The notes under the pieces were generated by a model, which had not been told where the DNA came from, did no database searches, and saw only the letters and a list, made by a program, of their open reading frames with translations. 64,000 bases of DNA from an uncultured bacterium (GTDB taxonomy: Bacteria > Patescibacteriota > Minisyncoccia > Phycocordibacterales > DATDWN01). The stretch spans positions 8,455-72,454 of the forward strand of contig CAVSGX010000004.1 of the NCBI GenBank assembly GCA_963727715.1, in the 5' to 3' direction. Below, piece after piece: positions 2,656 to 58,971 of this stretch. Numbering within the stretch: the stretch's first letter is position 1; every line of letters begins with the position of its first letter. The translations under genes and the position numbers were made by a program.

Positions 2656-3173
2656 CCACTAAATTATACAATTTTTTATCATCCGAGAATACAAAAAACT
2701 GTGGATAAATAAAGATATATCGGATAATCTCGGCAAAACGAGTTTATCAATTTTTTTATCAAATTTTATCTAAAATTTTTCCAAATTTTAACCTATTTTA
2801 CGAACCGACAAAAAGAGCCCTTTGGATCAACCTAAAATGATATTCTCGGATCTTCTCGGCATTCTAAATGACCCAAACCTTGTCAAGTTTTAGTCAAAAT
2901 TCTAATAGATTTATCAAATAAAGACATTTTTGTGGTCAAAAACCCTATAAACACTTGTTGATATTTGCCAATTGATATATAATTAATATGTAAAGGTTAT
3001 TTTGAGATGAAAAATGTCTGAATTATTTTTCAATTAACAAATAAAAAACTTTAAAAATGTTTTTAATCTAATTTTTACAGAGTTGTTAGATAAGAACATT
3101 TGTATTCTTTCTTATTATTTAATATCATGTATAATATAGTTTAGTAAGGTTTATAAATGTTAACAAATAGAAT

Positions 3174-3419
3174 ATGGCTAATTTATATATTACAATTAAA
3201 CAAGCTTCAAAAATTTTAGGTGTGTCAGCTATTACTCTTCGCAATTGGGATAAAAACGGTAAACTCAAGGCCCACCGCCACCCAATGAACAACTATAGGG
3301 TCTATAAGATTGAGGATCTAGAGAAGGTTATACAGGAAATTGAGACTAATGCCGGTTTGCGTAAAAGCACTAAACAACAAATCCATAAACTTATTGTCAA
3401 ACACCTGGAAGAAGAATGA
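3174..3419 (+). CDS. Small excisionase/MerR-like HTH DNA-binding protein (HTH_17 family)
   Basis: 'IKQASKILGVSAITLRNWDKNGKLKAHR...YRVYKIEDLEKV' fits the HTH_17 pattern. It is divergent from the surface-protein gene. Confidence 0.6.
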   Translation: MANLYITIKQASKILGVSAITLRNWDKNGKLKAHRHPMNNYRVYKIEDLEKVIQEIETNAGLRKSTKQQIHKLIVKHLEEE

Positions 3420-3485: not shown

Positions 3486-4910
3486 TTACTTATTCAATAT
3501 TTCCAAGATGATCTTTTTCAAAATCTCCGGGTTAGCGCTACCTTTGCTTGCTTTCATCCCCTGCCCCACAAAAAACTGCAGAACCGATTCTTTACCGGAT
3601 TTATAATCGGCAACCACTTTTGGGTTTTCTAAAATTATTTCTTTTATTATTTTATTTAATTCTTCTGAATCATTTTTCTGAATTAAATTTTTCTCTTTGA
3701 CAATTTGTTCTGGCTTCCCACCAGATTCAAACATCATTTTCAAAATATCTTTGACCCCGCGAGAAGAAATATTTCCTTTCTTTTGCATTAAAATAAGTTG
3801 TTTAAAAGTAGTCGGAGTCACTTTACCGAAATCAAAATTACTTTCTCCAAAAGATTTTGAAAGACCCAATAAGTCGGATGTAATGTAGTTTGAAAAAGTT
3901 TGTAAAATATTTTTATCGGATATTCCTGTGGTTGCCTCTTCAAAAAACGTCGCTACTTTCGGGTTGTTGATGTAGACTTCCACATCTTCTTTTTTCAACC
4001 CTAAATCAGTCTCAAATCTTTTTCTTTTTTGCCATGGCAGTTCCGGCAATTCAGCTTTTAATTTTGCAATAGAAAATTCCGGTATTTCTGAAATGATTAA
4101 TTTTGGCAGATCCGGTTCCGGAAAATATCTGTAATCATGAGCAGATTCTTTTGATCGTTGGGAAAAAGTAATGCCTTTATTTTCATCAAAACCGCGAGTT
4201 TCTTGAACGACTTTTTCTCCCCTCTGAAGAAGAGATTTCTGTCTTTCAAATTCATATTCCACAGCCCGGCCTGCAGACCTAAAAGAGTTTATATTTTTAA
4301 CCTCTACTTTTGTGCCGAAAATATCAGAGTTTGAAATGGAAATATTTACTTCCACTCGCATTTCACCTTTTTCCATATTGGCGTCGGAAACTTGTAGGTA
4401 CTGTAGAAGCAATTGTAATTCTTGAGCAAACTTCATCACCTCTTCGGCTGAATGAATAACCGGTTCAGTTACCAGTTCTAGGAGTGGCACGCCGGCTCTG
4501 TTGTAGTCTACCAAACTGATATCCTTTGTATCGTGACTGGACCTGGCTGTATCTTCTTCAAGGTGGACGCGAGTCAACTTCACCCCGCATAGTCCCCCAC
4601 CGGAAACCAAAGGATATTTATACTGGCTGATTTGATAGCCTTTCGGTATATCCGGATAAAAATAATTCTTGCGATCAAACTCGGTAAAATCAGCCAAGTC
4701 GCTGCCGAGAGCTACGCCAACAAGCAAAACTTTTTTGACCGCCGATTTATTTATAACCGGCAAGGTGCCGGGATAACCCATACATATCGGACAAATATTT
4801 ATATTAGGTTCTTTCTCGTCCGGCACATTCAGACAACCACAAAACATCTTGGTTTTTGTCTTCAGTTCGGCGTGAATTTCCAGCCCAATAGTTATTTTGT
4901 AATCCTCCAT
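3486..4910 (-). CDS. gatB: Asp-tRNA(Asn)/Glu-tRNA(Gln) amidotransferase subunit B
   Basis: The N-terminus 'YKITIGLEIHAELKTKTKMFCGC' and the overall length are typical of GatB. Confidence 0.9.
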   Translation of the reverse strand: MEDYKITIGLEIHAELKTKTKMFCGCLNVPDEKEPNINICPICMGYPGTLPVINKSAVKKVLLVGVALGSDLADFTEFDRKNYFYPDIPKGYQISQYKYPLVSGGGLCGVKLTRVHLEEDTARSSHDTKDISLVDYNRAGVPLLELVTEPVIHSAEEVMKFAQELQLLLQYLQVSDANMEKGEMRVEVNISISNSDIFGTKVEVKNINSFRSAGRAVEYEFERQKSLLQRGEKVVQETRGFDENKGITFSQRSKESAHDYRYFPEPDLPKLIISEIPEFSIAKLKAELPELPWQKRKRFETDLGLKKEDVEVYINNPKVATFFEEATTGISDKNILQTFSNYITSDLLGLSKSFGESNFDFGKVTPTTFKQLILMQKKGNISSRGVKDILKMMFESGGKPEQIVKEKNLIQKNDSEELNKIIKEIILENPKVVADYKSGKESVLQFFVGQGMKASKGSANPEILKKIILEILNK

Positions 4911-38508: not shown

Positions 38509-38660
38509 AATCGTTTATTATTATATCACAGATGATTAAAATCCAAACCACTAAAAGCTCGCCTGATTTTGCTCCGCAAAATCAGAAAGTAAAGAAAAAT
38601 TCAAAATTCAAAAACAAAAGAAAAAACAAATCGACAAGAGACAAGCTACCTTTTTGGAAA

Positions 38661-39650
38661 TCACAAGAACGAGCGGGAGAGGCGACCACCCAGAGGCGGA
38701 TGGGAACTGGACGGAGCATCGGCACGGACACCGAGCCGGGAACCGGCGGGGTTCCAATAGGCGCAGACGACACGAAAGGAAGATGGGGCGGTTTTGTCAG
38801 GGTTTGGCACTTTAGACCCGGGCAAAGCGGTCCAGTAGTATAGACCATCTTTCTCGTTTTTGGTGTCTATGTGCTTGCCTGTTTGTTCAAAGATTTTTCT
38901 TTGCAGGATGAGATAATCGGACAGAGTTAGAGATTGGTTCGGAGGCAAGGAGAGAAAGGTTTCAATCTTTTTGTTCAGAGTTTGTTTAAGCTCTGATTGT
39001 TGCCAGAGTTCTTGACTGTGGACTAGAACGATTCTTCTTTTTTTGTCTTCTATTACTCCTTCAAACCCGCCACCCGAGTTGAAATTGCTTCCGGTGTATG
39101 TTTCGTTGTATCCTTCCGACATTTTAGCGTTTAGGTCTGTCAGGTTTGGCAGAGTTTCCGGAATGAGCAGGATTGTGTCAAAACCGTGTTTTTCTATTTC
39201 TTCTCTGATTTGGTCAATGTTTCTTTCCCAGATGTTTTTCATCGTCTCGGAGAAGTCTTTCGGTCTGTCTATGGAGTGGGTTGTGTAAAAGGAAGTAAAG
39301 TATTCTATTTCTTTTTCAATATCTATGGTTATGGTTTCTTTCTTTTCTTCAGTGGTTGTTTTGCCGGTTTTTTCGTCTTTTGTCTCTTCGATATGTTTGT
39401 ATTCCACTTCTAGAGTTGTTGAGGATTTGCCTTCTATCTTTCTTTTGAGAGAACGGCATTGGGAGAGTGTTTCTTTGATTTTCAGGCTTAGTTCTTTCTG
39501 TTTCTCTGTATCTCCGCTCTCAATGGCTTTTAGGAGTTTATCTTTCATTTCTTCGGCCTGAGAGAGCAGGCCTTCCATTACGGTCAAGTCGGCCAGAGCT
39601 TGTTCTTTGGTTGGTGGAGAGTTTGGGATTTTGGGAGATTCGTGGGACAT
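38661..39650 (-). CDS. DGR target protein 1 (C-type-lectin-fold-like C-terminus carrying VR1)
   Basis: C-terminus 'GFRVVCAYWNPAGSRLGVRADAPSSSHPPLGGRLSRSFL'. About 97% nucleotide identity to the gene at 40671..41660, except in the variable repeat. Confidence 0.8.
   Translation of the reverse strand: MSHESPKIPNSPPTKEQALADLTVMEGLLSQAEEMKDKLLKAIESGDTEKQKELSLKIKETLSQCRSLKRKIEGKSSTTLEVEYKHIEETKDEKTGKTTTEEKKETITIDIEKEIEYFTSFYTTHSIDRPKDFSETMKNIWERNIDQIREEIEKHGFDTILLIPETLPNLTDLNAKMSEGYNETYTGSNFNSGGGFEGVIEDKKRRIVLVHSQELWQQSELKQTLNKKIETFLSLPPNQSLTLSDYLILQRKIFEQTGKHIDTKNEKDGLYYWTALPGSKVPNPDKTAPSSFRVVCAYWNPAGSRLGVRADAPSSSHPPLGGRLSRSFL
38673..38771 (-). repeat. DGR variable repeat VR1
   Basis: It aligns to the template repeat at 43071-43177. 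All but one difference fall at template-repeat adenines (coding sense). Confidence 0.8.
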
Positions 39651-39666
39651 AATGGATGGATGATAA

Positions 39667-40347
39667 TCAGTCTAATTTTATTAATTTCTTTGTCAGAACA
39701 GGAATTTCTTTTTGAAAAAAAGTTTTGACCGAATTCCAATCAGCGTCAAAAAAGATGACCGGCTCTGGATCGCTTTCGGCATCGTCAAAATAAACCATAC
39801 TTTTCAAGATATGGTGATAGTCGTGAGCCACAGACGGATACTGTCCCGGCAATCGTCTGATAATATTTTCCAGCGGTTCCACATTTTTGGCGCACCAGTA
39901 CAAATCAAAGAAATCTCTTTTTCTGCCTCTTTGCGAGCTGGCGATTATTTTCATCACGGCCACATCCGTTTTATTCAAAATTTTGACAAAACCGTATTCC
40001 AAAAATTTTTGTTTTGGAATAAAAAACGGATAAGCGATAAAACTGATTTTGGTGTCATACAATACGCCATATAAAGTGTTTGGTTCATCAATATCCGTGC
40101 TCCAATTTTCATTGCTTGCAAAACGAGATAACAGTTTCTTTGTTATAAAACTTTTTTCTGTGGTAAAAAAATCCAAATCAACAGATTTGCGATTGCCGGC
40201 CTGCAAAGCTAAGGCGGTGCCACCGGCCAGATACCAGCCTGATTCACTCAGCCATTCTTGGGTTGATAAAAAATCCAGAGCTGTTTTGGTTGATTTGGGT
40301 AAACATGAAAAGTTGATGATATTTAATTTTGAAGTGTCAGTGTCCAT
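39667..40347 (-). CDS. Nucleotidyltransferase AbiEii/AbiGii toxin-family protein
   Basis: 'WYLAGGTALALQAGNRKSVDLDFF'. Confidence 0.7.
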   Translation of the reverse strand: MDTDTSKLNIINFSCLPKSTKTALDFLSTQEWLSESGWYLAGGTALALQAGNRKSVDLDFFTTEKSFITKKLLSRFASNENWSTDIDEPNTLYGVLYDTKISFIAYPFFIPKQKFLEYGFVKILNKTDVAVMKIIASSQRGRKRDFFDLYWCAKNVEPLENIIRRLPGQYPSVAHDYHHILKSMVYFDDAESDPEPVIFFDADWNSVKTFFQKEIPVLTKKLIKLD

Positions 40348-40547
40348 AATGCTTTTGTTCTTGGTCTCAAAGACCGTGATGCAGAAACAACTTTTCTCAA
40401 CAATGCCTTGTCATAAAAATTCCAAAGCCAGCGAACCTCATTATCCCTGCCAAAATCTAAAATTCTCTCAATTATATATTGAGCGTTTTTTTCAGTGTCA
40501 ATTCTGCTGACATCGGTGTCCCAAAACAAAGATTGTCTAAATGGCAT
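40323..40547 (-). CDS. Small conserved partner protein of the AbiEii-like nucleotidyltransferase (putative antitoxin-like)
   Basis: Overlaps the AbiEii start by 25 nt. 'LFWDTDVSRIDTEKNAQYIIERILDFG...WLWNFY...SRSLRPRT' pattern. Confidence 0.45.
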   Translation of the reverse strand: MPFRQSLFWDTDVSRIDTEKNAQYIIERILDFGRDNEVRWLWNFYDKALLRKVVSASRSLRPRTKALWTLTLQN

Positions 40548-40670
40548 ACCTTCATTATATCAAATTTTGAGACAATATTCAACAAAAATCAAAATGCAAA
40601 AATAAAAAATTCAAAATTCAAAAACAAAAGAAAAAACAAATCGACAAGAGACAAGCTACCTTTTTGGAAA

Positions 40671-41660
40671 TCACAAGAACGAGCGGGAGAGGCGACCACC
40701 CAGAGGCGGATTGGAAATGGACGGATCATTGGCAACGACATTGAGCTGGGAACCGTCGGGGTACCAATGGGCGCAGACGACACGAAAGGAAGATGGGGCG
40801 GTTTTGTCAGGGTTTGGCACTTTAGACCCGGGCAAAGCGGTCCAGTAGTATAGACCATCTTTCTCGTTTTTGGTGTCTATGTGCTTGCCTGTTTGTTCAA
40901 AGATTTTTCTTTGCAGGATGAGATAATCGGACAGAGTTAGAGATTGGTTCGGAGGCAAGGAGAGAAAGGTTTCAATCTTTTTGTTCAGAGTTTGTTTAAG
41001 CTCTGATTGTTGCCAGAGTTCTTGACTGTGGACTAGAACGATTCTTCTTTTTTTGTCTTCTATTACTCCTTCAAACCCGCCACCCGAGTTGAAATTGCTT
41101 CCGGTGTATGTTTCGTTGTATCCTTCCGACATTTTAGCGTTTAGGTCTGTCAGGTTTGGCAGAGTTTCCGGAATGAGCAGGATTGTGTCAAAACCGTGTT
41201 TTTCTATTTCTTCTCTGATTTGGTCAATGTTTCTTTCCCAGATGTTTTTCATCGTCTCGGAGAAGTCTTTCGGTCTGTCTATGGAGTGGGTTGTGTAAAA
41301 GGAAGTAAAGTATTCTATTTCTTTTTCAATATCTATGGTTATGGTTTCTTTCTTTTCTTCAGTGGTTGTTTTGCCGGTTTTTTCGTCTTTTGTCTCTTCG
41401 ATATGTTTGTATTCCACTTCTAGAGTTGTTGAGGATTTGCCTTCTATCTTTCTTTTGAGAGAACGGCATTGGGAGAGTGTTTCTTTGATTTTCAGGCTTA
41501 GTTCTTTCTGTTTCTCTGTATCTCCGCTCTCAATGGCTTTTAGGAGTTTATCTTTCATTTCTTCGGCCTGAGAGAGCAGGCCTTCCATTACGGTCAAGTC
41601 GGCCAGAGCTTGTTCTTTGGTTGGTGGAGAGTTTGGGATTTTGGGAGATTCGTGGGACAT
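40671..41660 (-). CDS. DGR target protein 2 (tandem paralog of target 1, carrying VR2)
   Basis: The 329-aa protein is identical to target 1 until the C-terminal ~30 aa ('VVCAHWYPDGSQLNVVANDPSISNPPLGGRLSRSFL'). Confidence 0.8.
   Translation of the reverse strand: MSHESPKIPNSPPTKEQALADLTVMEGLLSQAEEMKDKLLKAIESGDTEKQKELSLKIKETLSQCRSLKRKIEGKSSTTLEVEYKHIEETKDEKTGKTTTEEKKETITIDIEKEIEYFTSFYTTHSIDRPKDFSETMKNIWERNIDQIREEIEKHGFDTILLIPETLPNLTDLNAKMSEGYNETYTGSNFNSGGGFEGVIEDKKRRIVLVHSQELWQQSELKQTLNKKIETFLSLPPNQSLTLSDYLILQRKIFEQTGKHIDTKNEKDGLYYWTALPGSKVPNPDKTAPSSFRVVCAHWYPDGSQLNVVANDPSISNPPLGGRLSRSFL
40683..40781 (-). repeat. DGR variable repeat VR2
   Basis: All but one difference from the template repeat fall at template-repeat adenines. 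Confidence 0.8.
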
Positions 41661-41672
41661 GGAAGTATTCTA

Positions 41673-42700
41673 TCATGTTATAACAATATCATTCAATATT
41701 GAAGTCAGTTTGTTTTTTAATCCAAATGAATCGCAGTGTTTCAGTAAAGCAAAATAAGACTGAAAATTATTCTTGTTCATTCTTTCAAAAATTTTTTGCT
41801 TGGTTTTATCTCTCAATAAAAGACAATCTGGCAAAGTCAGAGATCCTAGAAAATCTACTCCCCATTTTAATTTTCTGATTGAGATTTTATCATCCGGGAT
41901 TTGCAGAAACAGTTTTGCCATAAATTTTTTAATTTCAACCAAACAAAACCCCAATCTTTTTTTATTTTTATTTACCAAAATAAAATCGTCGTTGTATCTT
42001 ATATAAAATCTGGCGTTTAATTTTTTCTTCACAAAATGGTCAAAATCGTTCAAATAAATGTTGGCGAAAATCTGGCTGGTGATGTTGCCGAGCGGGATGC
42101 TTTTGTCAGAGCCATGAAGCGAGCAAAAACTTTCTACTATTTTCCCCACTTCCAAAAAAATATTTTCATTTTTCACTTTTCTTTTGATAAATTTCAGCAG
42201 TAGGCGGTGGTTGACACTTTCAAAGTATTTTTTGACATCGCATTTTAAAATAAAAACATCCCCATTTTTTCTTTTCGCCAATCCATTGAAATATTGGAGA
42301 GTTTTGACGGCTTTATGCGTTCCTTTTCCGTCTCTGGATGAATAACGGCTTTATGCGTTCCTTTTCCGTCTCTGGATGAATATGAGTCGGCAATAAATGC
42401 CGGCTCAAATAGATTTTTCAAATAATCGGATATTATTTGATGAATAATTCTATCTTTAACTTCAGCTTTGTGAATATTTCTTTTCTTGTTGTCAGTAACA
42501 ATAAAATGCGAATACCCGCCATGGCGGTAAGTTTTGTTTTTCAGATCTCTGTGCAAATCAAAAATATTGTCTTCCAAATGTCTTTCAAAAATCATTACAT
42601 CCATCTTGGAGGACTTTCCCCGCCGAAATTTCCGCCAAGCTGAAAATATATTATCAAGACTGAATAATTCGTTATAATTTTTATGGAACAAGACGCTCAT
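41673..42700 (-). pseudogene. DGR reverse transcriptase, frameshifted by a 38-bp tandem duplication (split into ORFs 42245..43024 and 41673..42281)
   Basis: 'RNIHKAEVKDRIIHQ', 'FIADSYSSRDGKGTHKAV', 'ILKCDVKKYFESVNH', the DGR-specific 'IPLGNITSQIFANIYL', and 'YIRYNDDFILV'. Deleting one 38-nt copy restores a single frame ('...HKAVKTLQYFNGLAKRKNGDVFILKCDV...'). Confidence 0.8.
42307..42382. repeat. Perfect 2 x 38-bp tandem duplication inside the RT gene
   Basis: 'acggctttatgcgttccttttccgtctctggatgaata' appears twice in tandem. Confidence 0.85.
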
Positions 42701-43057
42701 AAAATTGAAAAATTGGAAATGCCTATTATGGCCAAACTCTTTATCATTTACGAACTGACGCACAAGCTTATTTTCAAATTGCCGAAATTTGAAAGATACA
42801 CTTTGGGTGAAAAAATTGAAAATATCATCTTGGAAACGATTGAAATAATTGTCATCGCCAATGGGACGAACAAATACGAAAAAGAAAAATATTTGCTCAA
42901 AGCCAATGCCAAAGTGGAAATGCTTAAGTTGCTTTTTCGCATCGTTTTGAACTGCCAAATCATTGATTTCAAAAAATATTTGGAGGCGGAAGGGTTGCTT
43001 CAAGAAATCGGCAAAATGGCGCAAGGTTGGATAAAATACACCAGAAACGCAAAATAG
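42683..43057 (+). CDS. avd: Avd-like accessory variability determinant (four-helix-bundle / 23S-rRNA-IVS protein family)
   Basis: 'KLPKFERYTLGEKIENI...KANAKVEMLKLLFRIVLN...LQEIGKMAQGWIKY'. It sits on the opposite strand to the RT and the targets. Confidence 0.7.
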   Translation: MEQDAHKIEKLEMPIMAKLFIIYELTHKLIFKLPKFERYTLGEKIENIILETIEIIVIANGTNKYEKEKYLLKANAKVEMLKLLFRIVLNCQIIDFKKYLEAEGLLQEIGKMAQGWIKYTRNAK

Positions 43058-43070
43058 CTTTTGTATAAAG

Positions 43071-43177
43071 CAAGAACGGCGGGAGAGGCGACAACCCAGA
43101 TTCGGATTGGAATTGGACGGATCATTGGCATTGACATTGAGCTGGGAATTGTCGGGGTTCCAATTGGCGCAGACGAC
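43071..43177 (-). repeat. DGR template repeat (TR), non-coding, coding-sense on the minus strand
   Basis: It carries AAT/AAC at every position that varies in VR1-3, and lies directly next to avd and the RT. Homology to each variable repeat begins across the region matching the target stop codon. Confidence 0.8.
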
Positions 43178-43484
43178 TGCGGTCGCCCCTCGATTAGCTT
43201 TGCGTCGTCATTTCCGTTTGGAAACAAGACTCTATTTATTAGGGGCTACTTCCCCCTGACGCAAAACTGCTGTTCTTGTGTTTTATTTCCACAAATCAAC
43301 GACTATTTGGTTTCTAAAATTCAGAAACCATCTTTCGCCGTCAATTAGCGCTTCGGCAAACCAACTCATCACTGATGGCTTACGAGCCGAAGCGGGCGAT
43401 TTTTGCTTCGCAAAAATAAAAAATTCAAAATTCAAAAACAAAAGAAAAAACAAATCGACAAGAGACAAGCTACCTTTTTGGAAA

Positions 43485-45512
43485 TCACAAGAACGAGCGG
43501 GAGAGGCGACAACCCAGATTCGGATAGGAATAGGACGGATCATCGGCACCGACAACGAGCTGGGAATAGCCGGGGTCCCAATGGGCGCAGACGACGCGGA
43601 AACCGCCGGATGGATTTTTGACTGTTGAGCCGGGTAGCCATGTCCAACCGTCTTCATCCAAATGTTTGCCTGTTTGTTCAAAATATTGCTTTTGATACAA
43701 CAAATAATCTGTCAGAGACATTTTTTCACCTTGCGATATAAACTCCTCGGCTTTTTTATTCAGAGTTTTCTTCAGTTCCGAATGGTCTTTCAGATTTTGA
43801 GCGCTGTTTTTATGAATCAAAACGATTCTTCTTTTTTTGTCTTCTATTACTCCTTCAAACCCGCCACCCGAGTCGAAATTGCTTCCGGTGTATGTTTCGT
43901 TGTATCCTTCTGACATTTTTTTATGTATATCGGTTATGGTCAATCCTCCGGGCACAAGCAAAATCTCATCAAAACCATATTTTTCTACTTCTTGTTTTAT
44001 CTCGTCATAATTGTTCACCCATATATCCGCCATTTCTTCCGCAAATGATTCCGTCAATTCAATTTCGTGAGCTTTATAAAAAAGAAGAGAATCCTCAAGT
44101 TTTTTGTCAAAATTTATTTCTATTTTCTCTTTCTTTTCTTTGCCTTTCTCGTCCACGATTTTGTGTTCGGCAGAAACCACCGGTTCAAACGAACTGCCGG
44201 TCAATTCTCTTCTTTTACTTCTGAAAAATTTCTCCAAATCGGCTATTTCATTTTCAATCTTCTCTATCCCGTCCGCCGGACTTTCGGTTTTACCACCTTC
44301 AGGAATTGCCTCAGCAGACGCTTCTTTTTCTTCTTCGTTATTTTTCTTTTTTCTTTTCGTTCCTTTGCGTTTGGAATCTTTGGTTTCTATTTTGACTTCA
44401 ACCAATCGGATGATTTCTTCCAATTTTGTTCTGTCTTCGGCGCTTTCCAGTCTGTTGACATAATAATATTTCAGGGCTTTTTGAAAAGTTTCGCTGATGT
44501 CGCCATTGTAAAAACGCAAAACAAAATTTCTGACCCGCCTCGGCTCTTCGCGGTCGTCATAGGTGAAAACTTGTGGTTGATCTTCGGCGATTTGCCTGTT
44601 TTTCAAAAGTTCTTTGGCGGTTTTGTGAAATTCCTTGTATTTTTCCAAAATTTCGGCAATGCCTGGAATTTCCGAAAGTTGTTCCTGCGTCAAACCACCG
44701 GCGCCGGATAAAAACATATCATCAGGCAATTCGGCGGTTTTCTTTTCCAAACCGTTCTCTAAACCAAACAATGCACCAGTCGCTTGCTTAAAGGTCTCTT
44801 CCGGTAATTCATTTGGCATTTTTTTATAAACCCATCTGCGAAGCTGAGCTGGATCAAGTGGCTTTCTATCCAAATAACCGGCTCCCGGAGGATTCATAAA
44901 AGCGATGATTTTGGTTTTTTGTTTAGAAACTTTAACTGTTTCCGAAGCGTCTTCTGACAAAATGACATCGCTATCACGCTCCAGAGAATCCAAAACTTCA
45001 TGCAAACGAATCAAAATGTTCGGCGCCGATGAGTTGAATTCGTCCAAAACAATAATTTTGACTTTACCGTCTTCCTGTCGTAAACCGCTAGTTACTTTTC
45101 CGTCGGCGAAAATGTATTCCGGGTCTTCCGCATTATTTTTACGAGGATTTGGTATATATCGGCCCATCAAATCCTCCACATCCGTGGCACCGTTTAAGTT
45201 TATGTAATGAACTTCGTAGCCGAGCTCACTGGCCATTTTTCGCACCGTGGTGGTCTTACCAAAAGATGTTCCGCTTTCCACGGCAATAGGGTCGCCCATG
45301 GAAAACGACACGGCGATGTCACGTTGCAGTGGCAGAGCCACTTCGGTATCATTGGTGTAGTCCTTGTAATTTTCTCTTCTTGGCACAAATTGGCCATTTC
45401 TGTTTTTAGCTTTTTCCAGAGTAACACCCATATAAGAAACACTCCCGTCAGTTTCCATTATCGGCTCCAGTTTTGCTTCCGGATTGTTAAATTGTCCTTC
45501 TGGTGTTTTCAT
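43485..45512 (-). CDS. DGR target protein 3: MoxR-like AAA+ ATPase N-terminal domain fused to the shared C-terminal lectin-like domain with VR3
   Basis: 'ESGTSFGKTTTVRKMASELGYEVHYINL' (Walker A) and 'IIVLDEFNSS' (Walker B). The C-terminal 150 aa are homologous to targets 1 and 2 ('GFRVVCAHWDPGYSQLVVGADDPSYSYPNLGCRLSRSFL'). Confidence 0.8.
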   Translation of the reverse strand: MKTPEGQFNNPEAKLEPIMETDGSVSYMGVTLEKAKNRNGQFVPRRENYKDYTNDTEVALPLQRDIAVSFSMGDPIAVESGTSFGKTTTVRKMASELGYEVHYINLNGATDVEDLMGRYIPNPRKNNAEDPEYIFADGKVTSGLRQEDGKVKIIVLDEFNSSAPNILIRLHEVLDSLERDSDVILSEDASETVKVSKQKTKIIAFMNPPGAGYLDRKPLDPAQLRRWVYKKMPNELPEETFKQATGALFGLENGLEKKTAELPDDMFLSGAGGLTQEQLSEIPGIAEILEKYKEFHKTAKELLKNRQIAEDQPQVFTYDDREEPRRVRNFVLRFYNGDISETFQKALKYYYVNRLESAEDRTKLEEIIRLVEVKIETKDSKRKGTKRKKKNNEEEKEASAEAIPEGGKTESPADGIEKIENEIADLEKFFRSKRRELTGSSFEPVVSAEHKIVDEKGKEKKEKIEINFDKKLEDSLLFYKAHEIELTESFAEEMADIWVNNYDEIKQEVEKYGFDEILLVPGGLTITDIHKKMSEGYNETYTGSNFDSGGGFEGVIEDKKRRIVLIHKNSAQNLKDHSELKKTLNKKAEEFISQGEKMSLTDYLLYQKQYFEQTGKHLDEDGWTWLPGSTVKNPSGGFRVVCAHWDPGYSQLVVGADDPSYSYPNLGCRLSRSFL
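43497..43595 (-). repeat. DGR variable repeat VR3
   Basis: Every difference from the template repeat falls at a template-repeat adenine. Confidence 0.8.
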
Positions 45513-45956: not shown

Positions 45957-48242
45957 TCAACCAACAACTTCTTTCTCAAGTATTTCTGATATATCTTTTA
46001 TTATTTTGTCCACTTTTATATTATCGGATTTTAGCGGGTAATAAATAAGCTTTACACCGCCGGCTTTTTCGATTTTGCCTTTAATTTTTTGAAAATCATA
46101 TTTTGAGCCGGGATGTTTAGTGGATTCAGCTGGTCTGTCATCCGAAAAAACAATCATTATTTTGTTGTCTGTTTTTTGTTTTGCAAGTCTTGCCGAAGCG
46201 GTTTCCATAGCCCAACCAATGTCGGTTTCATTATGCTCATTTCCGCAATTTTTGCAACAACTATCTTCAACCTCTTTAAACATTCCTCCCATGTGTTCCC
46301 TGATTTTTTTTGACATTGGCTCTCCAAATTTTTGATACTCGTATATATCATCATTAAAACCGTTAATTTCAACGTTCAATCCTAGTTTGTTTAATGCTTC
46401 AGCCAGCACAACTTTTGCTTTGAAATCTTCTTCAATTTTTTTACGCATAGAACCAGATAAATCGTTTAGAATGGAAATTGAATATTCTTTTTCATCTGGT
46501 TTTTCTCTTTTTTGCCAAGCGTTGCTTTCTATTGGCGAAATGCGTCTGGCTTTTTCCTGAATCCTTGTTTTTATATCAATTCTTTTGCCTATTCTAAAGC
46601 CCTTTTTCCATCTTGTGGTTTGGGTGTCAACAAATATCTGTCTTAGTTTATTTTCCAATTCATCAATCAGCGACGAAACTTCTCGTCGGTGCTTTTCATA
46701 AATATTTTCGTCTTTATTGACTTCTCTTTTTAATCTTTCTTTGTATATTCTCAATCCTTCCAAATCAAGAGGTTCTTTTCTTAAAGTTCCGGTTCTGACC
46801 GGAGCGCCGCCTTGATTTTGATTGTTTATTTCAACCCCTGGCAAATTTTCCGGCGGTTCTGGATTTTTTCTTTCTGCTTTTTCCTCCGGATTTTCAGTCA
46901 ATTTGCCTTCCATTTCTTCGTTTAGTTTGTCTTCAAATTCCTTCAGCGCTTTTTCGGCTCTGTCGGCCAGCTCTTTTTTCACATCTTCCGGAAGCGAGTC
47001 GACATAATCCCTTATTTTTTGTTTTATTTCGTCGGAAAGGTCGTTCAGGTTTATTGTCCTCGCACCGATATCGTCTAGCGTCTGTGGTTGTTCATTGCCG
47101 GTGTTGTCTTCGTGTGGAGTCGGCTTGTTTGTGATTTTATCTTCTCCCTGCCCACCTGTTGACATTGGTTTGATTTTTTCTTTCTCTTTTTTTGCTTCAT
47201 CAATAGCTTTGTCAATAGCATTTTCCAACGTTTTCTTTTCTTCTTCGGTTAATTTGTCTTCCAAATCTTTTGGCAGTTTTGATTTTTTTTCATTTTTTTT
47301 ATCTTCACTTTCTCCTTCCTGATTTCCGTTATCTTTTTGTCCATCACCACCTTCCTTCCCATTTTCTCTTTCTTGCTCTTTTTTCATTTCTTCCATCATC
47401 TTTTTCATCACATCTTTCAACACTTCTTCCATTTTCTCATCCTCTTTATCTGCTTCAACCAGTTTTTTAAATTCTGGCCAAATTTCTTCCAGATTTATTT
47501 CATACGACACTTTGGCGTATTCTTTTATTTTTTCTTCACTTTCATCCGCTTCCTCTCGCGACGGATATCGCCACCAAGAATCCTGAGCTGATTTCAGTGT
47601 GGCTAAAACAACAGCTTTGACTTCTTCGGGCAAATCTTCCGAAATTTCAAAATTCTGTCCCTGTTTTTCACGAAACCATTGTCTAATATATTCATACCCC
47701 GCTTGCACAAAACGCGGTTGGAAACCCAGTTTTTCGGTAGCTTCTTTCTTTTCTTTTTCTCTTTTGGCAAAAAAATCATCCCAAGCAAATTTTATATTTT
47801 CATCGTATTTCGGATAACTCTCGGAAACAAAGTTGTCGTTTCTGGGATCTTCAATGAAATTCATCATAGCTGAAAAGCCCGGTTGTCGCCATGTTTCAAT
47901 CGGAATAAAATCTGTTCTGGAAACTCGTCTATGTCCTCCTTCGTGACAAATTAAATATCTCAATAATTCAATTGGCTCCGTCAGCAGAGTTTTCGGGTCA
48001 ACTCTGATGACATTTTTTTGAAAATCCCAATGCCAGCCAGCGCCTGGTTGGTTTAGTTCTATCGGCATCTCAAAATCTTTGCCAATAAAATAAGCCAGAG
48101 ATGACAAAATATTTTTCTTGCGCAGAATTTCTTTTTGTTCTTCTTCGTTAAATCGCTTCAAGATTTCCTCTTCTGGATTTTGCCGGAGAGAATCGTAGGT
48201 TTGTTCGTTTTGATTGAATTTTGGTCCTTCCATAATTTGCAA
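45957..48242 (-). CDS. vWA-domain protein with N-terminal HExxH metallopeptidase-like motif and long acidic coiled-coil linker (MoxR partner)
   Basis: MIDAS motif 'ILNDLSGSM' in a C-terminal vWA fold. 'LICHEGGHRR' and an E/K-rich low-complexity middle. Confidence 0.6.
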   Translation of the reverse strand: MQIMEGPKFNQNEQTYDSLRQNPEEEILKRFNEEEQKEILRKKNILSSLAYFIGKDFEMPIELNQPGAGWHWDFQKNVIRVDPKTLLTEPIELLRYLICHEGGHRRVSRTDFIPIETWRQPGFSAMMNFIEDPRNDNFVSESYPKYDENIKFAWDDFFAKREKEKKEATEKLGFQPRFVQAGYEYIRQWFREKQGQNFEISEDLPEEVKAVVLATLKSAQDSWWRYPSREEADESEEKIKEYAKVSYEINLEEIWPEFKKLVEADKEDEKMEEVLKDVMKKMMEEMKKEQERENGKEGGDGQKDNGNQEGESEDKKNEKKSKLPKDLEDKLTEEEKKTLENAIDKAIDEAKKEKEKIKPMSTGGQGEDKITNKPTPHEDNTGNEQPQTLDDIGARTINLNDLSDEIKQKIRDYVDSLPEDVKKELADRAEKALKEFEDKLNEEMEGKLTENPEEKAERKNPEPPENLPGVEINNQNQGGAPVRTGTLRKEPLDLEGLRIYKERLKREVNKDENIYEKHRREVSSLIDELENKLRQIFVDTQTTRWKKGFRIGKRIDIKTRIQEKARRISPIESNAWQKREKPDEKEYSISILNDLSGSMRKKIEEDFKAKVVLAEALNKLGLNVEINGFNDDIYEYQKFGEPMSKKIREHMGGMFKEVEDSCCKNCGNEHNETDIGWAMETASARLAKQKTDNKIMIVFSDDRPAESTKHPGSKYDFQKIKGKIEKAGGVKLIYYPLKSDNIKVDKIIKDISEILEKEVVG

Positions 48243-55170: not shown

Positions 55171-55864
55171 GATAACTTTCGTTTCAGGTTCCCTGAAGTT
55201 TTTAACTTCACCATATCGCTTCCCGTTATTCACGACTTTGGACGTAGCGAGCGGATTTCCCGCACTACGCGAGTTCGATAGTTTCTAGAACTAACGATTT
55301 TGTCCTTCATTTTGTTTTTCAACAAAACTACTACGACGCAGCTGACTTCCAGCACTAATTTTTGGAGTCAAGATTTTCACTTGACAAACACATTTTTTTC
55401 TTATTATTTCATAGGAGGTACTTCGTATGCACATATTTGAGGTTTTTGTATGTGTTGTTTTGGCAATCATGTTTCTTCCTTTGCCAATTTTCTTTTTGCG
55501 TTTTATTGCTTGTATAATAACTGATGCTGATTAAATCTAATCAGTTATTAGTCGACTTGAGTGATTTTGTCAAATCACTCTTTTCTTTTTCCAAAAATTA
55601 GTGCTGGATCTCCCAGGGTCATTTATATTTCTGTTCCAAACATCCGAATCGAGATTTTCGATAAGATTTATCGTGTGCTTCCTTCTGACTCACCGCAGAA
55701 GTCGCACATCTCTTTTTTTTGATTCGGCTGCTCTTTGCTACTAGGATCCTTCAGTCCAGTCATTGCTGATTGTGGACCTACCCGTTCGCTATTTTCACAC
55801 TCCTGTGAAAAGTTGGATTTGAACCAACTAGATATATAAACTGCCTGGCGCATTTTATTCTGAG
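55171..55864 (-). other. ~0.7-kb insertion (putative intron) in 16S after 'CTTGTAC' (E. coli ~1395), no homing endonuclease ORF
   Basis: The exon breaks after CTTGTAC and resumes at '...ATCCGCCCGTCAAGTCAGGGGAG'. Confidence 0.6.
55351..55605 (+). mobile_element. IR-flanked mini-element copy A (terminal IR 'AGCACTAATTTTTGGA') carrying an SD-led 35-aa hydrophobic ORF (55427..55534) and a terminator, antisense to the 16S
   Basis: Terminal inverted repeats at 55351-55372 and 55585-55605. 'ATAGGAGGTACTTCGT-ATG'. ORF 'MHIFEVFVCVVLAIMFLPLPIFFLRFIACIITDAD'. Hairpin plus 'TTTTCTTTTT'. Confidence 0.55.
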
Positions 55865-56099
55865 TACAAGACTTGAGAACGTATTCACCGCGGTATGTCT
55901 GACCCGCGATTACTAGCAATTCCAACTTCATGGGGTCGAGTTTCAGCCCCCAATCTGAACTGGGGCGACTTTTCTAAGGATTGGCTCAGGGTTACCCCGT
56001 CGCAACCTGTTGTAGTCGCCATTGTATTATGTGTGTAGCCCAAGGTATCAAAGGGACATGCTGATCTGGCGTCATCCTCGCCTTCCTCCCAGCTCCAGT

Positions 56100-56215
56100 T
56101 GCGCAAGATGAACGAACTCGGTTAAGACCGAATACGGACATCGATGTTTGCACAGAGAGACATCTACTTATGATGTTCTTGTGCAACTGGAGCTGGGCAG
56201 TCTCGCCTGATACTT
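56100..56215 (-). other. rRNA expansion segment: ~100-nt extra hairpin between 16S positions ~1114 and ~1173
   Basis: Perfect 21-nt inverted repeat 'ccagctccagttgcgcaaga...tcttgtgcaactggagctggg' inserted between conserved blocks. Confidence 0.6.
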
Positions 56216-56425
56216 ATAACAGACAACGAGGGTTGCGTTCGTTACCCCACTTAAGGGAACAATTCAAATCACGAACTGACGACGACCATGCATCACCTGC
56301 CTAACTGTCCTTGTGGGACCGCAAACGTTTCTGCTTGCATTCAGTTAGGTTTCAAACCTTGGTAAGATTCTTCGTTTATCATCGAATTAAACCACATAAT
56401 CCACTGCTTGTGCAAGTCCCCGTCT

Positions 56426-56457
<32 letters not shown>

Positions 56458-56641
56458 ACCCAGGCGCTTGACTTAACGCGTTAGCTACGCCACGCAGAGG
56501 GTCGATACTCCGCATAGCTAGTCAAGATCGTTTAGGGCGTGGACTACTGGGGTCTTAATGTTACTTCAAAATTTTGGGAAATTTTGAGGCACAACATTTC
56601 TGTTGTACTCTGCATGTTGCCATGCAGTTCGGACTATATCT

Positions 56642-57403
56642 TTATCTGTATGTATTCCACTTAGCTTTTTTCTTTTCATATTCTGCTATTATGACAGATT
56701 CTGAAAAATTACTAAGAGAAACCATTTCAGATATCCAGCGTTCTTGAAATTGAGAGTTTTTATATAGAAGAATTGCTTTGGATAACATGCTCGATACTGG
56801 TATGTATGGCAGTATGATACGCAAGAATTTTTTTAATTCTTCTTGTGACCTAATCCATAACCGCCAGTATTGTTCTTGCTTCCCATCTTGCTTACGCCCG
56901 ACGGGGGCAACAATGGCACGAACATCCCAAACAACTTTAAGATAGCGAGCTAGCATTTCGACTGATTGTTTTGAAAAACCATCAGTACAAAACACACCTT
57001 TTCTGGCGCCGTAACCAATAAGCGAACCGTCATCACACCACCAAACGGCGAGTGATAACGCTGTCATTTGATTAAGCCACCTACGCTCTATAAGCAATTT
57101 ATTTTGTTTGTGAGTTAAATGATGAAGTTCTGTAAGAGATGAAGTTCGCCTACTGGCAAATCTCCATTTTTTGTTCTTACTGTATCCATCAGGTTCCTGC
57201 ACAAACACACTGCTATCTCCTGCTATCTCTTTGAGAGCTTGCGCTTTCCATAAGAGATAATCTTTCTGCATTTCCGAATGACGAATTTGTAAATTCGCAT
57301 TGAAATAATTTTTTTGGATTTTTAGCGAGCCGTCTCCAAGGATTGAACCGAAGATAATAGCTTTCGCTTCATCCGACAAAGGCACATATTTCGTATCATG
57401 CAT
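56642..57403 (-). CDS. LAGLIDADG homing endonuclease (intron-encoded)
   Basis: 'GSILGDGSL' is a LAGLIDADG motif. It is on the same strand as the rRNA and inside the insertion. Confidence 0.8.
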   Translation of the reverse strand: MHDTKYVPLSDEAKAIIFGSILGDGSLKIQKNYFNANLQIRHSEMQKDYLLWKAQALKEIAGDSSVFVQEPDGYSKNKKWRFASRRTSSLTELHHLTHKQNKLLIERRWLNQMTALSLAVWWCDDGSLIGYGARKGVFCTDGFSKQSVEMLARYLKVVWDVRAIVAPVGRKQDGKQEQYWRLWIRSQEELKKFLRIILPYIPVSSMLSKAILLYKNSQFQERWISEMVSLSNFSESVIIAEYEKKKAKWNTYR

Positions 57404-57480
57404 ATAATTTTAAGTTAATTGCACGACGACAGAATAGCACCAACTATCTTACTCAATTTCATAGTCTCTACGGGGTTTCT

Positions 57481-57712
57481 AGCACTAATTTTTGGAGTCA
57501 AGCTTTGACTTGACAAGATTCATTTTATGATTTAACATCAATTCCAGGAGATTAACTCGATGGAATTTATTATGATATTGATCTGTTTAGGAGTTTTTTG
57601 TTTGATCACAGATATGATGATAACTGTTGCTATTGATATCTGTGAATGGATCGATCATTACCTGCACCGGCTTTTATAGCGGTGCAGTTTTCTTTTTCCA
57701 AAAATTAGTGCT
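57481..57712 (+). mobile_element. IR-flanked mini-element copy B carrying an SD-led 39-aa hydrophobic ORF (57560..57679) and a terminator, antisense to the 16S
   Basis: Same termini as copy A (57481-57502 and 57692-57712). 'CCAGGAGATTAACTCG-ATG'. ORF 'MEFIMILICLGVFCLITDMMITVAIDICEWIDHYLHRLL'. The stop codon sits in a terminator hairpin followed by 'TTTTCTTTTT'. Confidence 0.55.
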
Positions 57713-58971
57713 AGAAACTTCCCTCGGGGTTGTCCATACGAAATCAGTAAATTTCATATTGTATGGAGTTTCCCCGATATAGCTAGATTACAATTCTATG
57801 TCACCATAGAAAAGAGACACCTTCGTCCTATATTTTATTAGCGGGACTGGATTATCTAATCCCATTCGCTACCCACGCTTTCGTGTTTCAGTGTCAGGAG
57901 TGGCCCAATGTGCTGCCTTCGCTTTCGGTGTTCCCCATGATATCAACGGATTTCACCCCTACTCCATGAGTTCCACACATCCCTGCCATCCTCTAGTCGT
58001 GCCGTTTCGCTCGCACTTCCGGGGTTAAGCCCCGGGTTTTAACAAGCGACTAACACAACCACCTACACACCCTTTACGCCCAATAATTCCGGATAACGCT
58101 CGGGGCACTCGTATTACCGCTGCTGCTGGCACGAGTTTAGCAACCCCTTATTCTTGAGGTACTATCAATAAACTTTCTCCCTCACAAAAGATGTTTACGA
58201 CCCAGAGGGTCTTCATCCATCACGCGGCGTCGCTCGATCAGGCTTTCGCCCATTGTCGAATATTCTCGGCTGCTGCCACCCGTAGGTGTATGGACCGTCT
58301 CTCAGTTCCATCGGTGGGGGCCAAGCTCTCACTCCCCCTACGCGTCATAGCCTTGGTAGGCCGTTACCCTACCAACTAGCTGATACGACGCAGACTTTTC
58401 CTTTAGCGATAAATCTTTCCTCCGAAGAGAATATCAAGTATTACCTAATCTTTCGACTAGCTATTCCTGACTAAAGGGTAAATCTCTGCGCATTATTACC
58501 TCGTTCGCCACTGTCCTTGCGGACCGTTTGACTTGCATGCCTTATCCACGCCGCCAGCGTTCATCCTGAGCTAGGATCAAACTCTTAATAAAGATTTATT
58601 AAGATCTATCTTTTAAGAACGGAACAAAATAAAGGAAAATACTTTTGGTATCGCGATTATTTTATTTTTCTTTGATGAACACTGATTGTGTTTTTGGTTG
58701 ATTGTTATTGATGTTGTGAATTTTGCTGAATTCACTTTCCGGAATTATTTTAAAAGAATATTTTGCATCCGACTGTTTTTGACAAAACAGCCGAACTGTA
58801 AAACTTGCACGTTTTACATTCTCTAAATAAAGCCGACGTTTTCAGTCGGCTCCCCGACCTAATGCGTCGGGGTTCATTTTGATTGTCAACGAACTATCCA
58901 GTAAAGAAAATGCCTTTTGAGGCACCTAGATAGTATAGCCACGCCAAAGAAAAAGTCAAGTCAATCAGCGG

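Follow-up and report, generated by a model that had tools for sequence, protein, structure and literature searches.

To our knowledge, prokaryotes have no dedicated system of protein hypermutation other than diversity-generating retroelements (DGRs), which are particularly frequent in bacteria of the Candidate Phyla Radiation (CPR). About 15% of DGRs have several targets, tandem targets are known, and unrelated open reading frames (ORFs), judged not to be conserved among DGRs, can nest between DGR components (Wu et al. 2018, Nucleic Acids Research (NAR), PMC5758913). The same study describes a CPR class of variable repeats (VRs), UVR4, that is attached to midasin-type AAA proteins. Here we analysed a stretch of 64,000 nt from contig CAVSGX010000004.1 (assembly GCA_963727715.1, an uncultured bacterium of the Patescibacteriota), hereafter called the window. 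The locus in question is a DGR with three targets on the chromosome of a member of the Patescibacteria (CPR), and a cassette of two genes, encoding a DUF6922 protein and an AbiEii-family nucleotidyltransferase, lies between two of its targets. Read along the minus strand, its components are a vWA gene, a 133-aa gene, a target fused to an AAA_5 domain (target 3, with VR3), the template repeat (TR), the accessory gene avd on the opposite strand, the reverse transcriptase (RT) gene, target 2, the DUF6922/AbiEii cassette and target 1 (Table 1).

Two target genes written from one template repeat

Repeat search, MAFFT alignment and a base-by-base comparison at an offset of 2010 all recovered the duplicate. 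They agree that 38595-39650 (copy A) and 40605-41660 (copy B), each ~1,056 nt long, are separated by only 12 mismatches, which in copy A lie at 38702, 38707, 38716, 38720, 38725, 38726, 38731, 38732, 38737, 38746, 38753 and 38759. Every one of the 12 falls within the 99-nt VRs and every one corresponds to an adenine of the TR; the other ~1,044 nt hold no differences. Identity begins at the ATG of both 329-aa ORFs and ends ~65 nt past their stop codons, and the flanks, both before the ATGs and past the distal 3' end, consist of unrelated sequence. Between the RT stop codon and copy B there is a gap of 12 nt. A chance or low-complexity repeat is ruled out by the 1,056 shared nt together with the placement of all 12 differences at TR adenines.

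The initial annotation had called 38596-39650 and 40606-41660 near-identical, had seen their divergence concentrated in the VRs, and had taken the two genes for DGR targets that were diversified independently. The 12 mismatches in ~1,056 nt, their exclusive location in the VRs and their coincidence with TR adenines bear out these three points. Its description of the spacer as an AbiEii-family nucleotidyltransferase with a small overlapping partner was likewise borne out by matches to PF08843 and PF21956.

Since 12 of the 12 inter-copy differences stand at TR adenines, retrohoming into copies A and B was separate. One TR supplied adenine-mutagenised information separately to each of the three VRs, and the small targets 1 and 2 are paralogues that were each given a separate mutagenised cDNA from this single TR. 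The only VR difference at a position other than an adenine is a T>G change at TR position 85 (Cys to Gly), which is common to VR1 and VR2 and lies near the 3' end. Its retention in both suggests that information transfer in the small targets has a 3' boundary upstream of this T>G. A GC-rich stretch, GTCGCCTCTCCCGC, is common to the 3' ends of TR and VR, and the two sequences part after a 1-nt indel.

Identical repeats can be mis-threaded by metagenome assemblers, and a single target whose VR variants in the population had been laid out as two copies might look like this locus. In addition, the first target copy of the closest relative (L004, described below) looks chimeric, and graph cycles occur in two further contigs (L080 and L168). 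We therefore weighed these points against an independent assembly at k=31 (Logan, run ERR11594402). Its contigs end k-1 = 30 nt inside every repeat edge: contig L001 is the same as window 39621-40625 and so comprises the spacer and 30 nt of each flanking repeat, L167 begins at 38624, 30 nt into the 3' end of copy A, and L002 begins 30 nt inside a 38-bp repeat in the RT gene and ends in the 3' element of target 3. From these break points all four junctions (RT to target, target to cassette, cassette to target, and target to the gene for a type IV secretion coupling protein, T4CP) appear to be present in the reads. In the Logan assembly one side of the cassette is joined to the 3' end of a target and the opposite side to the start of a target, the RT-to-target and target-to-T4CP junctions are present as well, and the same order is found in other genomes from other assemblers. 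An assembly artefact is thus highly improbable.

The 38-bp repeat is a perfect tandem duplication that frameshifts the RT gene, a defect that had escaped the initial annotation. In silico removal of one copy yields a 329-aa RT with LGNITSQ and YNDD motifs. This restored RT can be aligned from end to end with the 327-aa RT of L004, which is intact, and the alignment (63% identity) crosses the repaired junction without a break. The start point of Logan contig L002 implies the duplication as well. No second intact RT and no extra DGR parts were found within the window, and the element as sequenced is probably inactive. With the RT frameshifted, the VR differences would be a record of what the element did in the past, except if the population also contains an intact allele. 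The duplication could mark either a dead element or a reversible on/off state; inactivated RTs are common among DGR candidates (Wu et al. 2018, PMC5758913).

Directly behind the stop codon of each VR-bearing gene lies a 3' element that is not present after the TR. It is pyrimidine-rich and contains the tandem heptamers TAGCTTG-TCTCTTG, and this heptamer motif is kept in L003, L004 and L168 as TAGCTTGTAGCTTG or TAACTTGTAGCTTG. The DGR of the Bordetella phage has a hairpin at this place. In the 3' element, DNA folding against shuffled sequences revealed no hairpin or cruciform, the folds being weaker than those of the shuffled controls (z +1.5 to +2.2). The element is likely a cis target-recognition element of the DGR that replaces the usual hairpin.

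Table 1. Positions of the DGR components and the cassette in the window, with examples of flanking repeats from other cassette loci
Feature	Position	Strand	Details
Repeat copy A: target gene 1 + 3' element	38595..39650	-	ORF 38661..39650, 329 aa
Repeat copy B: target gene 2 + 3' element	40605..41660	-	ORF 40671..41660, 329 aa
VR1	38673-38771	-	16 differences from TR, 15 at TR adenines
VR2	40683-40781	-	10 differences from TR, 9 at TR adenines
VR3	43497-43595	-	11 differences from TR, 11 at TR adenines
TR	43079-43177	-	99 nt, non-coding, 21 adenines, run of AAT codons
3' element, directly after VR stop codons	38595-38660, 40596-40670, ~43410-43484	-	~65-75 nt; 100% identical behind all three VRs
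AbiEii-family nucleotidyltransferase, putative toxin	39667..40347	-	226 aa; PF08843 E=3e-14, 54 bits vs cut-off 22.5; PADLOC AbiEii models
DUF6922 protein, putative antitoxin/partner	40323..40547	-	74 aa; PF21956 E=1e-17; 25-nt overlap with AbiEii gene
Cassette promoter-like site	40554..40582	-	TTGAAT-17-TATAAT, extended -10, TGATATAAT
DGR RT, split into two ORFs	41673..42700	-	RVT_1 domain
Perfect 38-bp tandem duplication	42307-42344 + 42345-42382		inside RT; frameshifts RT
Avd accessory gene	42683..43057	+	between TR and RT; Pfam bAvd E=1.4e-17, 64.5 bits vs cut-off 40
Target 3	43485..45512	-	675 aa; N-terminal AAA_5 (MoxR/midasin-like) ATPase, E=5e-12; C-terminal domain homologous to small targets
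vWA (CobT_C-type) protein	45957..48242	-	upstream of target 3; neighbour conserved in this DGR family; PF11775, E=1.4e-6
Flanking repeats, locus L032	2078-2145 / 3140-3207		
Flanking repeats, locus L057	1525-1642 / 2603-2723		
Flanking repeats, locus L116	3346-3443 / 4473-4568		

Avd was also compared with NF033474 and matched at E=5e-19, under the cut-off of that model. As annotated, the RT gene (start 42700, minus strand) and avd (start 42683, plus strand) are divergent and share 18 nt at their starts. The avd gene of L004 begins at the equivalent of residue 19, and the true start of avd in the window may be internal (M13 or M16). Between the 3' flank of target 3 and the TR, a stretch with GGCTCGTAAGCCA and flanking complementary segments is found both in the window (~43340-43410) and in L004 (~1040-1090); this conserved stretch may belong to the DGR RNA, upstream of the TR. 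The vWA gene, a 130-aa gene and the AAA_5 target stand in the same order on the contig of the P0006 homologue. Similar N-termini (MK[ST]PE... or MSHES...) were seen in DGR targets of differing length and family, at 45512, 41660 and 39650 in the window and at L008 1061, L080 2459, L083 3441 and L063 1037. An AlphaFold2 model of the small target, built from a family alignment of 17 sequences, was confident and reached a predicted local distance difference test score (pLDDT) of 90.1 and a predicted template modelling score (pTM) of 0.83. Foldseek comparison of this model with the PDB gave no match (best E=0.78), and a C-type-lectin (CLec) fold for VR display was not confirmed. Outside the DGR, the minus strand of the window carries a 16S rRNA gene (55812-58592) with two Rfam matches (55812-56668 and 57762-58592) parted by an insertion of ~1.1 kb, which encodes a LAGLIDADG homing endonuclease (56642..57403). 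An interrupted 16S rRNA gene is typical of CPR bacteria. Together with the relatives found, all of them Patescibacteria metagenome-assembled genomes, it marks the host as a CPR bacterium and the DGR as chromosomal.

Relatives of the locus and a proposed maintenance of two copies

The target family is small, comprising 16 clusters, and no target homologues were found in GTDB species genomes with the single protein as query. Its closest relative outside this genome is P0002 in GCA_037134875.1 (L004), which was also recovered on an independent MEGAHIT contig (L005). In L004/L005 the order is a target-3-like gene, TR, (avd), an intact RT, target, DUF6922, AbiEii and target. Identity between the window and L004 is 53% for the target, 63% for the RT, 73% for AbiEii, 80% for the DUF6922 protein and 82% for Avd, and the GG...DLD nucleotidyltransferase motif of AbiEii is kept. 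Between the two target copies of L004 there is likewise 100% identity, which starts 9 nt ahead of the ATG and reaches ~55 nt past the stop codon. A third lineage is represented by L168 (Logan run SRR31558128), where DUF6922, AbiEii and a target that is 56% identical to that of the window lie on a contig of 1,897 bp. In the window, L168 and L004 alike, alignment is possible from the stop codon of the target, across the 3' element and on into the leader of the cassette. Shared gene order and alignable junctions in these three lineages indicate that the layout is older than this genome. The initial annotation had proposed a recent duplication, against which stands the same RT-target-DUF6922-AbiEii-target order in the diverged L004/L005, with cassette and target joined in L168 as well.

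Parts of this arrangement occur in other loci too, and, counted beyond L004, a target-cassette(-target) layout is found in at least three further lineages. In L063 a target 3' end is followed by the cassette and a 333-aa target of the same family. In L080 a target-cassette-target unit stands beside the TR-(avd)-RT of a distant DGR (RT 37% identical) with seven adenine mismatches between TR and VR, and in L008 the cassette ends 4 nt upstream of a 756-aa target, which is followed by TR-(avd)-RT. Target-family members adjoin the cassette in L029 and L103 too, and probably in L009. Tandem targets that have no cassette between them (L003) are 66-88% identical, whereas targets flanking a cassette are ~100% identical in the window, L004 and L080. 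The AbiEii proteins of DGR-linked loci occupy at least three places in a rough neighbour-joining tree. An upstream ORF in L170 that had been considered as a further AbiEii proved on checking not to be one.

Two of these contigs close on themselves. The first and last 30 nt (k-1) of L168 coincide and so make a closed graph cycle of cassette plus target, and L063 (1-2120) has a terminal overlap of 136 nt with 5 mismatches, 4 of them in the VR. Such contigs may stand for tandem arrays, for circular molecules of cassette plus target, or for a graph cycle that arises from a target-cassette-target order.

The edge of identity was described in the initial annotation as coinciding exactly with the start codon. 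This is accurate for the window but not as a general feature, since the edge is lineage-specific: a 9-nt leader, AATAMYYCC, precedes the ATG in both copies of L004, in L168 and in copy B of the window, and is missing only from copy A. Because the leader is present in all these copies, the ATG-exact edge appears to be a local accident. The identity from the ATG to a T-rich 3' end had raised the idea that the DGR RT duplicated the target from a leaderless mRNA; it was dropped because relatives have the common 9-nt leader inside the repeat. A terminator or promoter as cause of the exact edge was also rejected, consensus scans being at background level and L004 and L168 showing the edge to be lineage-specific.

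Taken together, we lean towards a maintained layout whose copies are homogenised by recombination, rather than a one-off recent duplication. For the 100% identity outside the VRs, homogenisation through gene conversion or unequal exchange, or else repeated re-duplication, seems the better explanation. Recombination among the targets is visible elsewhere in the locus. Target 3 and the small targets share 57% amino acid identity over 223 aa, and despite this divergence of the gene bodies their 3' elements are 100% identical, and a 99-nt patch is 98% identical between the small targets (39027-39125 and 41037-41135) and target 3 (43821-43919). This patch looks like a gene-conversion tract among DGR targets.

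Under such maintenance the 1-kb repeats would recombine, either by gene conversion or by unequal exchange with re-duplication of cassette plus target, and would thereby stay identical, with DGR mutagenesis re-diversifying the VRs faster than they are homogenised. Target 2 would be transcribed together with the RT across the 12-nt gap, and target 1 from the cassette promoter across a gap of 16 nt; transcribed separately, the two copies may be regulated differently. Speculatively, were the cassette to act as an addiction module, the pair would be lost and the cell killed whenever the identical repeats crossed over, and the two-copy state would be locked in, by analogy with toxin-antitoxin cassettes in superintegrons. 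A stabilising (addiction) role of DUF6922/AbiEii is plausible, and the recurrent layout lends it comparative support.

Several observations weigh against maintenance by homogenisation. The DUF6922 protein is not a canonical AbiEi antitoxin, and the toxin and antitoxin roles are putative assignments from sequence. The identities of AbiEii and RT disagree (73% and 63% between the window and L004, 79% and 42% between the window and L008), from which it follows that the cassette has been exchanged or re-acquired, so that strict co-inheritance of the layout is not proven. The repeat edges differ, lying at the ATG in the window and 9 nt upstream of it in L004, and independent duplications would fit this too. 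In L004 and L080 the flanking VRs are mutually identical, maybe as an assembler consensus, and metagenome contigs are weak evidence on the state of VRs; the first L004 copy, located at a contig end, is probably chimeric. Finally, ~90% of the cassette loci have no DGR nearby.

The DUF6922/AbiEii cassette within and beyond the DGR

The spacer between copies A and B measures 955 bp. From one repeat to the other it consists of a leader of ~58 nt, DUF6922, AbiEii and 16 nt. No AbiEi-type antitoxin was found as partner of AbiEii: the 74-aa protein matches DUF6922 only and has no PADLOC match. NCBIfam models matched neither the AbiEii nor the DUF6922 protein. DUF6922 was not mentioned in the literature searched, and a link between DGRs and AbiEii was absent from it beyond incidental co-mention.

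AbiEii relatives with a DUF6922 partner are abundant in Patescibacteria: they were matched in >368 metagenome stretches and 119 GTDB genomes, and 160 loci were examined. DUF6922 lies upstream of AbiEii in 74 of 80 genome loci and in 78 of 80 metagenome loci, the remaining two of which are truncated at the 5' end of AbiEii. In most cassette loci TGATATAAT stands 7-10 nt ahead of the DUF6922 ATG. When the cassette loci were compared, no conserved terminal motif or att-like site was found at the cassette ends except this promoter, and no recombinase or mobility gene is present inside the cassette. Some ~90% of the ~160 loci have no DGR component nearby. A conjugative-element context was considered and rejected, as coupling-protein homologues of type IV secretion systems (T4SS) occur near only 2 of the ~160. 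These features point to an autonomous two-gene module with its own promoter that is common in Patescibacteria. In L022, a homologue of the window vWA protein (66% identity over 259 aa, positions 1701-2477) lies directly upstream of the DUF6922/AbiEii cassette, and this homology makes a further link of the cassette to DGR-associated vWA/MoxR neighbourhoods.

Direct repeats of local sequence abut the cassette on both sides in 7 of the 63 metagenome loci that were eligible and in 11 of 71 genome loci (18/134 in all). Random 900-bp segments of the same loci, used as control, had such repeats in 9 of 6,666 cases (0.14%). The repeats are 50-120 nt long and 81-95% identical, and their sequence differs from locus to locus (examples in Table 1). 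Of the two copies, one usually belongs to a neighbouring gene as its real 3' end or terminator, and the second is a relic. The pattern is similar to that of restriction-modification addiction modules, for which insertion with long target duplication is described.

A cassette with this signature may itself have produced the second target. Insertion downstream of a single target would then have made the new copy independently in the window and L004 lineages, and the identity of the copies would reflect their youth. The excess of flanking repeats over the controls fits such an origin, as does the same signature in restriction-modification addiction modules, where it often extends across gene starts or stops. 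The differing edges in the window and L004, the incongruence of the AbiEii tree with the RT tree, and the 100% identity of the copies outside the VR in each genome can be read in the same way. Nonetheless, one site would have to be used independently in at least three lineages of a single target family (window, L004 and L168), and the alignable junctions from 3' element to leader argue for a single origin. Flanking duplications elsewhere are 50-120 nt long, compared with 1 kb here. Moreover, no empty-site relative, with a single repeat copy and without the cassette, was found among the relatives recovered. We consider a recent cassette-driven duplication clearly less probable than maintenance with homogenisation, although the two are partly compatible, since a unit of cassette plus target that went through cycles of unequal exchange would be both homogenised and re-duplicated.

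The position of the cassette also raises the question of a functional coupling, in which DUF6922, AbiEii and the target would form an operon and the DGR-varied protein would act as sensor or regulator of the nucleotidyltransferase effector in a system of the abortive-infection type. A DGR target follows AbiEii on the same strand after 2-45 nt in the window, L004, L168, L063, L008, L080 and probably L009, with targets of three length classes, and the vWA and MoxR-like AAA proteins around the DGR are a setting of the kind put forward for conflict-system sensors that DGRs diversify (Dore et al. 2024, Proceedings of the National Academy of Sciences (PNAS), PMC10907252). Yet in ~90% of the ~160 cassette loci the neighbours are unrelated and a DGR is missing, the cassette carries a predicted promoter of its own and behaves as a self-contained mobile pair, and the second target copy sits after the RT instead of after the toxin gene. 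Such coupling seems unlikely to us. We give similarly little credence to an extended form of it, in which DUF6922-AbiEii-target would be a functional and possibly excisable or amplifiable module, the hypermutated protein serving as sensor of the toxin and the toxin pair enforcing retention of the tandem copies. Such a module would fit the tight, same-strand adjacency of AbiEii and target seen in six or more lineages, the vWA/MoxR surroundings, and the closing of the L168 and L063 contigs into cycles of cassette plus target.

The locus among known systems

With the B3 architecture of Wu et al. (PMC5758913) the locus has in common the RT, an Avd on the reverse strand between TR and RT, adenine-specific mismatches and C-terminal VRs. 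It departs from the DGRs of that study in that the same two-gene cassette recurs next to targets in several lineages and the flanking targets differ only at mutagenised positions. The MoxR-vWA conflict systems of Dore et al. (PMC10907252) are alike in combining a short and a long, N-terminally extended target with MoxR-like AAA and vWA neighbours, and in having duplicated and recombined targets. They are unlike it in that they belong to multicellular Proteobacteria and Cyanobacteria, with transposons and MITEs (miniature transposable elements with inverted repeats) as drivers of duplication and peptidase or TIR effectors; the present locus is in a CPR genome, has no transposon and carries an AbiEii-type pair between the duplicates.

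The cassette can be set beside three further systems. Long target duplication (Nobusato 2000; Furuta et al. 2010, PMC2853133) likewise concerns a unit without recombinase inside local direct repeats of >30 bp that often span the start or stop of a neighbouring gene. Those on record involve restriction-modification systems, have repeats of ~50-100 bp and are matched by an empty site in a sister genome, whereas in the window the unit is toxin-antitoxin (TA)-like, the repeat is a whole 1-kb gene (1,056 bp), and an empty site was not found. As in the TA cassettes of superintegrons (Mruk & Kobayashi 2014, PMC3874152), an addiction module among direct repeats would counter-select loss of the DNA that they flank; there the repeats are attC sites and stabilisation was shown experimentally, while in the window it is only inferred. 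The AbiE (AbiEi/AbiEii) type IV TA systems share with the cassette an AbiEii domain with a GG...DxD motif and a gene overlap with a small upstream partner, but this partner is a 74-aa DUF6922 protein in the window instead of an AbiEi-type antitoxin.

The locus offers a clean natural case of one TR writing independently into two otherwise identical genes. If the pair locks in tandem hypervariable genes or is regulated by them, TA biology would be linked to the upkeep or output of targeted hypermutation. With the long duplications flanking the cassette, a mobility signature so far described for restriction-modification is extended to a module in Patescibacteria that is TA-like. Should all of these ideas fail, what is left is an ordinary DGR with several targets and an inactivated RT.

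Thus, the DGR itself, its multiple targets and the TR-(avd)-RT architecture are of kinds already known. Two things appear to be new: a DUF6922/AbiEii cassette recurs next to DGR targets or between them, with the target copies identical except in their VRs, and the DUF6922/AbiEii family in Patescibacteria bears a signature of long target duplication.

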